A stretch of DNA of 64,000 bases, taken from the NCBI GenBank assembly GCA_000182565.2, contig KQ257451.1; one strand, written 5' to 3'. Source of the DNA: Spizellomyces punctatus DAOM BR117 (taxonomy: Eukaryota). A program made the position numbers and the translations under genes. The notes beneath the pieces are model-generated. The model did no database searches, was not told where the DNA came from, and saw only the letters and a list, made by a program, of their open reading frames with translations. Positions 53,929 to 57,473 of this stretch are shown here, piece after piece. Each line of letters opens with the position of its first letter. The stretch's first letter is position 1.

Positions 53929-56900
53929 ATGTCGGGTCCGAGTAGAGACGTTTTGGGGCATGGACGACCTTCGGGTTCGTTTTCTTCAAGTCGGTTAGGG
54001 TCAAGCCACGGTTCTTCCCCTACACCGTCCTCTCCTCTATCGTCTTCGCCTTCCCGTCAGCTTCCTGTCGCTGCTAGAGTTTCCGACGCCATATCTTTTG
54101 ACAGTACTCTAGACTCGGAGCACGAGGCTTCAAAGACACGGCAAGGATCTCAGTCTTCTGGGTCCTCTTCAGCCTTGGGTACTCCGCCTGTCCTTCCCAA
54201 CCGAACCGTCTCCTTACAAATGCATCCCAACGGAGTCCCTCCAAGCGTACCACCAAAAACTAAGCATCCACATGCACAGCCAGGGAGTCCTCAGAAGCTG
54301 GGAGTGTCGATAGGCTCTCCTTTTAATTTTGAGAAAAAGCTCCATGTTGACGGTGACTTTAACTGGTTCGGAGAAGGGGTACGAAAGGCGCTTTTATGTT
54401 TGGGCCCGTTTCTTGATTTATCAGTAGTGGGAGTAACAGCATCTTTTGCCTTGGTAGAATCCACGAGAAATGTTTGATATCCAGGAAAAACTTGGAGAAG
54501 GGTAAGCCCGGGATTGCACTCTATGGTGGGAATATTGGTCGCAAATAATAACACTTCTGCAGTGCATTTGGTGCCGTCTTCAAAGCTGTTCTGAAGCAGA
54601 CAGGATTCGTGATGGCGATCAAAGAAGTTCTGGTGGGGAAATTGAATGACCGCGAGAGCATTCAAAAAGAGATCAACATGTTGCGCCAATGTCGACACCG
54701 TAATACCGTGCAGTACTATGGTATGTAATCGCCTTCTACGAATATTTCTCAAGACATCGAACGCTGAATAGTACCGTTGTCACCTACAGGGTGTTGTAGC
54801 GTTGATGATGACTCTATCTGGGTGAGTGATCGAGGAACCTGTGCCTAACAGACTCCGTGCGATTTTATTTTCTGCTAACGCGGATGGTGTAGATTCTGAA
54901 TGATTACTGCGGAGCTGGTTCAATATCTGATTGTATTGAACTAACTGAATCGACATTTACCGAAGCACAAATCGCTATTGTGTTGACTGCCGCCTTGGAA
55001 GGGCTAGCCTTCCTGCATAGCCGGAATATTGTGCACAGGTAAGCTGGTTTCCAGAAACACGTTTGGAATAGCCTTGTTCATTGCTTTTGTACAGAGATGT
55101 AAAGTGCGCAAATATCTTGCTGACGGAAGATGCAACAGTTAAGATTGGTGGGTAGTATACTAAATGGACACGGCGCGAATAATTGTGGTGACTAAGTTCA
55201 TCACCCTGTTCAGGCGACTTTGGTGTGTCGGAAAAGTTGACTCAAACGGTCTGCGTCCGGAACTCCATAGTCGGCACTCCATATTGGATGAGGTGCGTTT
55301 CGGCTTCGTGTAACTAGGCATCTCGAATCTAATGATGATGTCTTCGCAGTCCGGAAGTCATTACAGGATCGGATTATGGAACTGAGGTATGTGTGCGCAT
55401 CTCCTGAATAGTACAGATGACATTTTCCCTTCTCACGAGAGTGTTAGGCCGACATATGGAGTCTTGGCATTACTGCGATTGAAATGACGGACGGTGTCCC
55501 ACCCCACTCGGATGTTCATCCAATGAGGGTATGTAGCGACCCAATCCGCTTGTGATCAGAATACAAAACTTAGGGTATCGGTTTTTCAACAGGCCATGTT
55601 CAAAATCCCATTCCTACCACCACCCACATTACTTCAACCAAACGCCTACTCCAAAACATTCAACAATTTCATTGCACAGTGCCTCATCAAGGATCCCAAG
55701 AAGAGACCATCTGCGCTAGAGCTTTTGAAGCATCCTTTTATTGAGCGCTACGTCGGGCAACAGCAAAACGTCGAGCTTCGCAAGCCGCTGATAGAGAAAG
55801 TTCGCGAAGTGATTGCTAAGAGAGCATTCATCAAGAAGCGTGGTAGACCAAAAGCAGGAAGAACATTGATGACGGTAACTGCCCAAGTGCAGGTGGATAA
55901 GACCTTACAAGATGACATCAGAAGGGTTACGGGCACCCCTGATCGTCACGATTCTGGGGATCGCCTCGTTCCTGTTGATGCTCCAGGAAAGCCACGCGGG
56001 ATGTCTGACTCTTCTGTCACAAGTCATGGAACCGTTGTCATTCATTCTGAAGAGGAGTTTGATCAGTCATACACAGATGAGGCAAGTGGGACAATGGTGA
56101 TACATCGGGAGCAGGAACACGTGGATATTCGTCTGGATACGGCCAATGTGAAGGACATGGACAGTGCTGGAACTTTTGTAATTCGCTCTGAAGAGGCAGA
56201 AGTGGATATCCGCTTGCGAGGTGCTTTGATGGACACCATGGTGATTCATCAGGATCACTCTCACGTCGATGTAAAGTTGAAGGAGCACGAAGCGGATGCG
56301 GATGTAGAGAGTGATGAAGAGGCCCATGACGATGATAATCCGGACGAGCCCCTGGATGCAGAGTACCTGATCACCGGCGGTGACCGCGCCGGCAGGAAAG
56401 GCTCTGGTCTTGAGGAATCTGGCGGTGTCCGGTACGCGCGCAGATTATCAGATGCTACCGACGATGAACACATTCTGTTTGCAACCCGAAAACCGAAATC
56501 GAATGTTGCAACTAAACTACGTAAGCGCCTTGAAAAGTTTAGGAAGACGCTGAAAGGCAATGTAGCTGGAGTAGAGGAATCCGGTGATGAAAGAGAATAT
56601 CTCGAAATGTCTCAAAATGGCCGCTCCGAGGATCGTGGGAAGAGCCGGAGTTTGGGAGAAAAAGAGTCTCCCATTATGGCGGAGCGCACCACACGACCCC
56701 TCACGTATTATAAAGATCGACCGTCTAGACCTAATCTCGGTGGATCCATCCCGTTTGGGGCAGATGAGCTATTGACTGGCAAAAAGCGAGCTAATAGTGC
56801 AGGAAGCGATGAACAACCCATAACTCGTCTGTCTCGGGGTACACGATCAGAGAGCGTCTCTTCCGCTGAAGACCCGCGAAGTTCAACCGATACTGCCACC

Positions 56901-57473
56901 ACTGCTTTCTCCGTTTCTTCTTCGTCGGGTGCGGAAGATGGCGTGGCCTTGCAAAAGCGTGCCTTGTCCAAGTTTTATGAGGTTGTATTTGGTATGCGAG
57001 CTGCTTCCGAAGATCCATCCGAAATGAGCTTAAAAGCGAACGGAAAGCAAAGCGTGGGGGAACGAAGCGGGAGTGTGGGAACTAGTTTCAGCGACGCCAA
57101 AGGGCCAACTCGGCCACGATCCATCTCTTCCGTGAGTCTGGGGCGGGTGGATGGAGAAATCGACGTGAACAAGCTGGTTCGTATCCATGACGAGCTGATA
57201 AAAGAGATTGAGCAAGCGAAACGCGGCGGTGGACGATGGTGGAAGGCCGCCAATCGGGACATTCCAGAGAGGTCGATTCAGGCAATGCAGGGTGCTGCCA
57301 ATGGGTCAGCTGTCATTGATGAGGACGATAAATATCTGGAAGGGAAGGAAGAGTTGGTGACGGGTTGGGCGACACGTATCCCATGGGTCGGCTACACGAC
57401 GGCAGTGGTGATCGGACAAACGATCGTGCTAGGGTGGAAAATCGGAAGAGTCTTGTGGAAAGAGGTAAGGTGA
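53929..57473 (+). CDS. STE20-family (GCK-II/MST-like) Ser/Thr kinase with a CRIB-like N-terminal motif and a hydrophobic C-terminal tail, multi-exon
   Basis: [80 protein letters not shown]. Confidence 0.92.

Follow-up and report, generated by a model that had tools for sequence, protein, structure and literature searches.

A CRIB-bearing, MST-like protein kinase without a detected SARAH domain in the chytrid Spizellomyces punctatus

In the PAKs, the kinase domain lies at the C-terminus and the CRIB motif forms part of a larger PBD/autoinhibitory region. A different layout has been described for the PAKL subfamily of Dictyostelium, which consists of PakE to PakH and in which a divergent CRIB stands immediately before an MST/YSK-like kinase domain (Goldberg et al. 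2006; PMC1420674). According to a later review, a consensus CRIB is found in PakF and PakG, not in PakE and PakH, and none of the four proteins has been studied experimentally (PMC8847673). The name 'PAKL' occurs in a single paper of the literature searched; among 10 titles listed for tail-anchored, CRIB-bearing STE20 kinases, none describes such a protein. For human MST2, a further study reports autophosphorylation at seven Thr-Met motifs in the linker, four of which redundantly dock Mob1 via a pT-M dipeptide (PMC4511216). Studies of how the Hippo pathway arose recognise its kinases by the combination of a kinase and a SARAH domain, so that S. punctatus is credited with one Hippo gene (PMC7035326). 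Here, we describe a further MST-related kinase gene, located at positions 53929-57876 on the plus strand of a 64,000-nucleotide stretch of contig KQ257451.1 from S. punctatus DAOM BR117 (GCA_000182565.2); this whole stretch is referred to as the window.

The gene fits a chytrid PAKL-type kinase, i.e. a CRIB-bearing MST-like kinase, as judged from its sequence. Like the PAKL proteins, its product has a short divergent CRIB directly before a kinase that is closer to MST/YSK than to PAKA, and dictyostelid proteins of the same layout share a clade with it at a support of 99. However, the chytrid proteins have Lys, Arg or Gln in place of the first CRIB His and add a long repeat linker, a C-terminal amphipathic helix and a hydrophobic tail, whereas the dictyostelid members were seen without a hydrophobic tail (Kyte-Doolittle hydropathy, KD, <0.1). 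The architecture, called unusual in the initial annotation, is real and conserved but not unique, because a CRIB before an MST-like kinase is a hallmark of the clade and had been noted for Dictyostelium PAKL. The kind itself is thus known, though almost unstudied, and the His-less CRIB, the repeat-rich linker and the amphipathic helix with the tail are lineage-specific.

MST1/MST2/Hippo are the solved structures whose kinase domain is most similar to that of the protein, and the similarity extends to the helix that follows this domain. The protein also shares with them the N-terminal position of the kinase, a long disordered linker and a GTMVI-type Thr motif within it. It differs from them in having no SARAH, in belonging to a separate clade and in carrying a CRIB-like motif and a hydrophobic tail, neither of which occurs in the 22 rows that fall outside this clade. 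PAK groups I and II (PAKA, Ste20, Cla4, PAK1-6) likewise have a CRIB-type motif ahead of a STE20-group kinase domain, but the motif of the window gene comprises 16-19 residues, abuts the kinase and stays below the Pfam PBD cut-off. Taken together, we read the gene, with a probability of roughly 0.6, as encoding a SARAH-less, CRIB-bearing MST-like kinase of a separate clade, with a repeat linker and a terminal helix, that would act at a membrane in the way proposed below.

Kinase class and phylogenetic position

The catalytic domain is located as follows:
54476..55742, plus strand: protein kinase domain, residues ~157-410, with eight introns within it (Pfam Pkinase 1.3e-64 on residues 157-410 of P0001, the closest orthologue)

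Sequence comparisons identify the gene product as a catalytically complete STE20-group kinase whose domain is nearest to MST1/2. All catalytic residues are present and invariant in an alignment of 73 sequences (A1). P0001, which is 98% identical to the window kinase over 299 kinase columns, retrieved MST1/2 (STK4/STK3) from the PDB as all of its top 10 distinct sequences (289.5-298.7 bits), followed by GCK-III (241-249 bits) and MAP4K4/TNIK (~234-240 bits), and no PAK was found among the best 60 of 911 matches. Moreover, the domain occupies residues 157-410 of 1011 and is not C-terminal as in the PAK type. The GCK-II-like core proposed in the initial annotation is therefore supported by the PDB ranking, which also speaks against a grouping with PAKs; the trees placed the core outside canonical MST/Hippo.

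About 200 proteins were gathered by searches with a paralogue and a Balamuthia relative, and two maximum-likelihood trees of 67 and 86 kinase domains were inferred by quick IQ-TREE searches and rooted on GCK-III-like sequences. A canonical clade, supported by 97-98 in the Shimodaira-Hasegawa-like approximate likelihood ratio test (SH-aLRT), unites the SARAH-bearing animal MST/Hippo kinases with a group of unicellular relatives and P0193 from Geranomyces. The window gene belongs to a CRIB-bearing clade (SH-aLRT 98-99) with 46 rows in the first tree and 64 in the second. A 30-row zoosporic-fungal group within this clade covers seven Chytridiomycota orders, Blastocladiomycota, Gonapodya and an aphelid, and beyond the fungi the clade extends to dictyostelids, Balamuthia, Anaeramoeba and many protist sequences. 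Seven dictyostelid-type rows (six named dictyostelids and P0153), which have the same layout, lie inside the 99-supported clade. The zoosporic-fungal genes form two subfamilies, that of the window gene with ~860-1080 aa and a shorter one of ~655-875 aa around P0010. A tree constrained to unite the fungal group with canonical MST kinases was worse by 60.7 log-likelihood units (p = 0.0023 in the approximately unbiased (AU) test).

The canonical Hippo kinase of these fungi is another gene. The tail of P0193 (Geranomyces variabilis, 480 aa) matched a profile of 76 SARAH tails with 73.8% probability (E 2.9e-5, 35 columns). In the supplement of Chen et al. 2020, the S. punctatus 'Hippo' is a different coding sequence (CDS) of 1737 nt, and one Hippo, 2 Mats and 1 Warts are counted for this species (PMC7035326). 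The start of this CDS, translated by eye, enters the kinase domain within ~30 residues, which is P0193-like. According to a figure legend in PMC10959527, a SARAH-bearing S. punctatus Hippo has also been claimed by Sebe-Pedros et al. 2012. P0193 and the separately listed CDS indicate that these fungi have a canonical Hippo besides the window-type kinase. By sequence, the window gene is thus a paralogue of Hippo rather than a remodelled Hippo, and the view of the initial annotation that a Hippo kinase had its SARAH replaced does not hold, given the separate clade and the rejected joining.

A search with Mst1_SARAH from Pfam gave no match in the last large exon of the window gene at E<=1 and none in nine chytrid relatives at E<=10, with fish MST1 as a control reaching 3e-23. 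This agrees with the lack of a SARAH assumed initially. A conserved helix at residues 879-904 was considered as a SARAH candidate and rejected, since hhalign against the SARAH profile gave 0.2% over 2 columns, compared to 73.8% for the control P0193. The SARAH of P0193 itself reaches only 12.2 bits by Pfam (cut-off 23.1), though it is recognised by profile comparison; thus, surveys relying on Pfam SARAH may undercount Hippo in early fungi.

The CRIB-like motif

Upstream of the catalytic domain lies the following element:
54310..54366, plus strand: CRIB-like motif, residues 128-146, ~10 residues ahead of the first kinase strand (conserved in orthologues and paralogues)

The stretch quoted in the initial annotation corresponds to residues 128-140 (nt 54310-54348), and the G-loop of the kinase starts at residue 163. 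The motif is kept in every orthologue and paralogue retrieved, which disposes of the doubt, raised beforehand, that it might not be conserved. A loose CRIB pattern is found in 50 of the 64 rows inside the clade and in none of the 22 outside, and the 14 clade rows without it are mostly N-terminally short models or spacing variants. The presence of such a motif before the kinase is thereby confirmed. From the core, the motif runs on into a near-invariant Trp and a 'DP' adjoining the kinase. The second CRIB His is kept in 21 of 24 fungal motifs, and the non-fungal clade motifs have the first His in 19 of 26 and the second in 26 of 26 cases.

The Pfam PBD scan suggested at the outset gave a divided answer. 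PBD (PF00786) did not match exon 1 of the window gene at E<=1, and it was silent for the direct orthologues as well. Among the relatives, however, profile positions 1/2 to 14-33 were matched at the homologous place in 24 of 45 clade members scanned, and two of the 45, P0170 (21.8 bits) and P0190 (22.2 bits), passed the gathering cut-off of 21.3 bits; Anaeramoeba P0050 fell just short with 20.9 bits, and the paralogue P0010 scored 13.0 bits. The conservation together with the position-matched PBD scores in relatives marks the motif as a true short CRIB by descent.

In one clade member, P0044 (JGI metagenome, 750 aa), the CRIB motif and the kinase follow, within a single fused chain, a Ras-family GTPase domain at residues 5-160 (Pfam Ras 9.5e-29) with a Ras-like switch I. 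In the manner of a 'Rosetta stone', this fusion may hint at a small GTPase as the partner of the motif, which would then be of the Ras and not of the Rho type. Further accessory domains in the clade are ankyrin repeats (e.g. P0040, P0131), Kelch propellers (e.g. P0144, P0149 and Balamuthia P0152), RGS (P0137, P0189), C2 (P0175) and FERM_f0/RA-like domains (P0110, P0141).

Gene model, linker and C-terminal tail

The window is eukaryotic in character, with ~47% G+C and short GT..AG introns. Translation starts at ATG 53929, which is preceded by an in-frame stop and matches the start of the orthologue P0001. Removal of nine GT..AG introns of 56-79 nt each from 53929 on yields an open frame with all peptides quoted earlier: the G-loop is encoded by exons 2 and 3, the activation loop by exon 7, HPMRAMFKIP by the exon 9/10 junction and the quoted C-terminal peptide by the end of exon 10. 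The complete splice model has 12 exons and encodes 1011 aa (53929-57876, plus strand). Its parts, all on the plus strand, are:
53929..54378, plus strand: exon 1, residues 1-150, Ser/Pro-rich N-terminus with the CRIB-like motif at its end (ATG after in-frame stop; GT donor at 54379)
54458..54501, plus strand: exon 2 (splice model)
54563..54720, plus strand: exon 3, G-loop and VAIK lysine (splice model; Pkinase match on exon 3 alone)
54790..54821, plus strand: exon 4 (splice model)
54893..55038, plus strand: exon 5 (splice model; Pkinase match)
55095..55147, plus strand: exon 6, end of the HRD motif and catalytic loop (splice model)
55214..55292, plus strand: exon 7, DFG and activation loop, with a Ser aligned to a Thr of MST1 (splice model; MST1 alignment)
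55350..55386, plus strand: exon 8 (splice model)
55448..55528, plus strand: exon 9 (splice model)
55593..57464, plus strand: exon 10, residues 361-984, with the last part of the kinase domain, the long linker and the amphipathic helix (splice model)
57465..57524, plus strand: intron 10, 60 nt, GTAAGG...CTCTAG (its removal yields the C-terminus annotated in P0001 and a motif kept in all orthologues)
57525..57544, plus strand: exon 11, a micro-exon of 20 nt (sequence kept in orthologues)
57545..57812, plus strand: intron 11, 268 nt, GT..AG, pyrimidine-rich, with a GTAAGT consensus donor at 57545 (RNA reads)
57813..57876, plus strand: exon 12, hydrophobic tail and stop TAG at 57874-57876 (RNA joint; hydropathy; orthologue tails)

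The last exon encodes the peptide HSFYLILLVSLIWAKPFSLQ. The end of the gene had initially been placed at 57473; this stop (57471-57473) and the last two residues before it are a read-through into intron 10, and the model runs to 57876. The donor GTAAGG suspected at about 57465 does lead to further sequence, since two small exons follow, as indicated by the C-termini of orthologues and, for the last intron, by RNA. RNA sequencing confirmed the proposed splicing in part: the GT..AG joint 57544->57813, which removes intron 57545-57812, was present in three reads of the same species with three different starts, and the 57464/57525 joint was not seen. Besides 57544->57813, no joint reached the listing threshold at the very thin RNA coverage, so that the splice of intron 10 is supported by conservation. 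If intron 10 is retained, the frame gains two residues and stops at 57471-57473. Some reads fell into mainly intronic bins; the RNA depth was 2.87 in one such bin, 57466-57606. The runs X2-X4 are genomic contigs, which follow the gene straight through its introns (0 differences) and are uninformative on splicing.

P0001 is 91% identical over exon 10, for which the best protein match is a hypothetical protein of Spizellomyces sp. 'palustris'; the matches that follow are orthologues of seven other Spizellomycetales, five of which span the whole query at 32-45% identity. At 268 nt, intron 11 greatly exceeds the remaining ten introns, which measure 56-79 nt, and it contains a long pyrimidine-rich tract with T and CT runs at 57640-57700, of which 57664-57696 was skipped as a repeat in the read alignment.

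Between the kinase and the tail lie ~550 residues, which are mostly disordered in the AlphaFold2 (AF2) model of the Thoreauomyces orthologue P0005. This model has a mean predicted local distance difference test score (pLDDT) of 61.8, with the kinase above 90. Hydropathy was assessed with a 19-residue Kyte-Doolittle window (KD19; usual line 1.6) and with the Eisenberg mean hydrophobicity (H) and moment. The linker and the region before the tail contain:
56022..56267, plus strand: four GT[MVF]VI[HR] repeats with Thr 507, 527, 554 and 575 (regular-expression census)
56520..56558, plus strand: conserved basic helix, residues 670-682 (in 11 of 24 fungal proteins, all of the window gene's subfamily; AF2 helix 560-576 of P0005, pLDDT ~72)
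57147..57224, plus strand: conserved acidic/helical motif, residues 879-904, not SARAH (alignment; AF2 helix 770-791 of P0005)
57384..57464, plus strand: amphipathic helix, residues 958-984, formerly called a tail anchor (best KD19 1.33; AF2 helix 864-890 of P0005)

Each linker repeat is trailed by an acidic or His-rich stretch. The four copies of the window gene compare to one to four in all eight direct orthologues and three in Allomyces, and none was found in P0010, P0017 and P0019 of the paralogue subfamily or in the related Rhizophlyctis P0009. All four animal MST/Hippo kinases examined have a single GTMVIN copy. The resemblance to the TM motifs of MST2 is the basis for a Mob1-directed output; by this analogy, we infer that the repeats could serve as Mob1 docks.

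The idea of a C-terminal membrane anchor put forward in the initial annotation has to be moved to another segment. The segment then named, residues 958-984, has a best KD19 of 1.33, and the Eisenberg values of its second half (H 0.06, moment 0.52) characterise it as an amphipathic helix. A hydrophobic element does exist, in exons 11-12: this helix (KD19 1.69, H 0.71, moment 0.09) ends 6-7 residues before the C-terminus and is the sole 19-residue stretch at or above 1.6 in the 1011-aa protein. Splicing that alters the C-terminus, named beforehand as speaking against the anchor, does occur, and the true end lies in exon 12. In the AF2 model of P0005, the region forms a helix-kink-helix (864-890 and 892-912, pLDDT 78-87), of which 892-912, at a pLDDT of about 80-87, matches the exon 12 tail. 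A search of a protein atlas returned nothing usable for the C-terminal 188 residues of exon 10.

The hydrophobic tail is present in 12 of 24 fungal gene models, which include both subfamilies and three Blastocladiomycota. The other 12 models end exactly where the last intron sits and are, because of this precise coincidence, very probably truncated annotations that miss a terminal exon of ~60 nt. These tail-less models are P0001, P0004, P0006, P0007, P0008, P0167, P0026, P0039, P0010, P0018, P0020 and P0023. A hydrophobic C-terminus occurs in 17 of the 64 clade rows and in none of the 22 outside, and several short protist members (~440-510 aa, some with a full CRIB core) end in membrane-grade helices with KD19 values of 2.1-2.9. 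Hydrophobic ends across the clade suggest that a tail anchor is a recurrent trait, which makes a membrane tail anchor the likeliest reading for the terminal helix of the chytrid kinase. As in tail-anchored proteins, most of the predicted chain precedes a single hydrophobic helix that ends 6 residues short of the C-terminus, whereas the hydrophobicity of this helix is borderline and a conserved amphipathic helix and a polar motif precede the tail.

Possible mode of action, alternatives and genomic surroundings

In the proposed mechanism, the terminal helix would serve as a tail anchor in a membrane. The kinase would lie on the cytosolic side, and the amphipathic helix would rest along the membrane surface. 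The CRIB-like strand beside the N-lobe would be bound by a small GTPase in its GTP form or by some other partner, and this binding would control activity or clustering and not recruitment. The active kinase might then phosphorylate the Thr residues of its own linker repeats, much as the TM motifs of MST2 are autophosphorylated, and the phosphorylated repeats could dock Mob1 and thereby feed an NDR/LATS-type kinase. Such a tail-anchored route would run parallel to the soluble, SARAH-bearing Hippo kinase of the same fungi. GTPase binding or gating, membrane insertion and Mob1 recruitment are what we infer for the window kinase from its sequence; the 64-kb window encodes no small GTPase and no Mob gene.

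Several observations weigh against this reading and have to be considered together with the alternatives. The tree sequences were picked by similarity with limited outgroups and contain neither PAKA nor D. discoideum PakE-H by name, so that the equation with PAKL is drawn from the architecture and the dictyostelid relatives; moreover, the group used for the AU test was chosen after inspection of the tree. The gene could be suspected to be the chytrid Hippo orthologue that has lost its SARAH and gained new ends, as MST1/2 are the best PDB matches, the linker repeats resemble the GTMVIN motif of animal MST/Hippo and several clade members are named 'Serine/threonine-protein kinase 4' at NCBI. We consider this very improbable because P0193 groups with SARAH-bearing MSTs and has a match to the SARAH profile (73.8%, E 2.9e-5), because the S. 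punctatus Hippo listed by Chen et al. 2020 is another gene of 1737 nt (PMC7035326), and because the window gene sits in a different clade with a support of 99, whose union with the canonical one is rejected (p-AU 0.0023). As to the CRIB-like motif, PBD gave no match in the eight direct orthologues even at E<=10, and the first His is replaced in all 24 fungal motifs (K in 15, R in 5, Q in 3 and P in 1), which confirms the exchange to Lys noted initially and makes it a trait of the entire fungal lineage. In the P0005 model, the motif has a pLDDT of 62-74 and no defined packing or docking, which fits, without proving it, a strand that folds upon a partner. It is quite possible, though in our view the lesser of the two prospects, that the fungal stretch no longer binds a small GTPase and instead extends the kinase fold at its N-terminus or serves another partner as a docking strand, e.g. 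in dimerisation or autoinhibition. Both His residues are important in PAK CRIBs, and besides the lost His and the silent PBD profile, the Trp and 'DP' that abut the kinase suggest an intramolecular role. However, the remaining core (Pro, Phe and the second His-Val-Asp) is strongly kept, with the His in 21 of 24 motifs, relatives having both His residues reach the PBD cut-off, and AF2 does not confidently dock the motif onto the kinase. Furthermore, the semi-CRIB of Par6, which lacks the canonical histidine(s) and stands directly before a PDZ domain that could complete the GTPase surface, still binds Cdc42 with the aid of this next domain. Par6 is an analogy for binding by a His-less CRIB only, as its neighbouring domain is a PDZ and that of the window gene a kinase.

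The same has to be considered for the C-terminal half. In two of the four repeats the Thr is followed by Val or Phe instead of Met, and the chytrid tail, which contains His, Ser and Tyr, is of moderate hydrophobicity only, its value of 1.69 lying just above the usual line of 1.6. The C-terminal helices might thus form a soluble helical hairpin or a protein-protein interface and no membrane anchor, to which the marginal KD19, the lower values of the paralogue subfamily (0.9-1.1 in an 18-residue window, KD18) and the conserved polar residues in and before the helix (Arg-Glu-x-Arg-x-Asn, His), unusual for a plain anchor, would correspond. This appears somewhat unlikely, as the last 18 residues combine an H of 0.71 with a moment of 0.09, as the chain closes after them with a short and often basic end of the kind found in tail-anchored proteins, and as the short protist relatives end in helices of membrane grade (KD 2.1-2.9). 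The 57464/57525 junction is absent from the RNA reads, of which only 96 were placed, 72 of them partly, and given the reads in mostly intronic bins, a tail-less isoform may arise by retention of intron 10. That the main product is tail-less, ends at 57473 and is followed by untranslated exons is a stronger claim, for which the unreported joint and the depth of 2.87 in the mostly intronic bin 57466-57606 could be cited; it is quite improbable, because two fungal phyla share, in the same reading frame, the residues that exons 11-12 encode, because RNA reads show removal of the following intron, and because the number of placed reads is so small.

If the tail and the CRIB-like motif of the proposed membrane-anchored kinase work as suggested, small-GTPase signalling at a membrane would be linked to Mob1-NDR/LATS. 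Zoosporic fungi have at least two further MST-related kinases of another design, namely the window gene's subfamily and that of P0010, and this design, with CRIB-type input, no SARAH, repeats resembling Mob1 docks and a hydrophobic tail, is common to many protists. Half of the public fungal models (12/24) end before the last micro-exon, which hides the tail. A far broader claim would be that PAKL-type kinases are an ancient and widespread tail-anchored, GTPase-gated MST-like module, whose autophosphorylated Thr repeats recruit Mob1 and drive NDR/LATS at the membrane in parallel to SARAH-type Hippo, that this module was lost in animals and Dikarya, and that splicing or retention of intron 10 in chytrids switches between anchored and soluble forms; as a joint claim, we regard this as unlikely. 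Spizellomyces can be transformed.

The kinase gene is surrounded by housekeeping neighbours in the window:
11553-12206, plus strand: Sdh5/SDHAF2
32464-32997, plus strand: GPP34/GOLPH3
33585-33986, minus strand: PIG-X
43795-44439, minus strand: ribosomal protein uL5
48094-49070, minus strand: DEAD-box helicase
60372-60821, plus strand: mitochondrial pyruvate carrier

In addition, open reading frame (ORF) pieces with PAZ, ArgoL2/ArgoMid and Piwi at 105-2427 (plus strand) belong to an Argonaute gene that is cut by the window edge, and an ORF at 41174-41710 (plus strand) carries XFP_N, the N-terminal phosphoketolase domain (E 1.5e-32). The convergent downstream neighbour of the kinase gene, at 58283-58852 on the minus strand, is an ORF rich in Ser, Thr and Ala, in which a single strongly hydrophobic segment precedes an Arg run; it had no Pfam match at E<=1e-4 and resembles a mucin-type single-pass surface protein.

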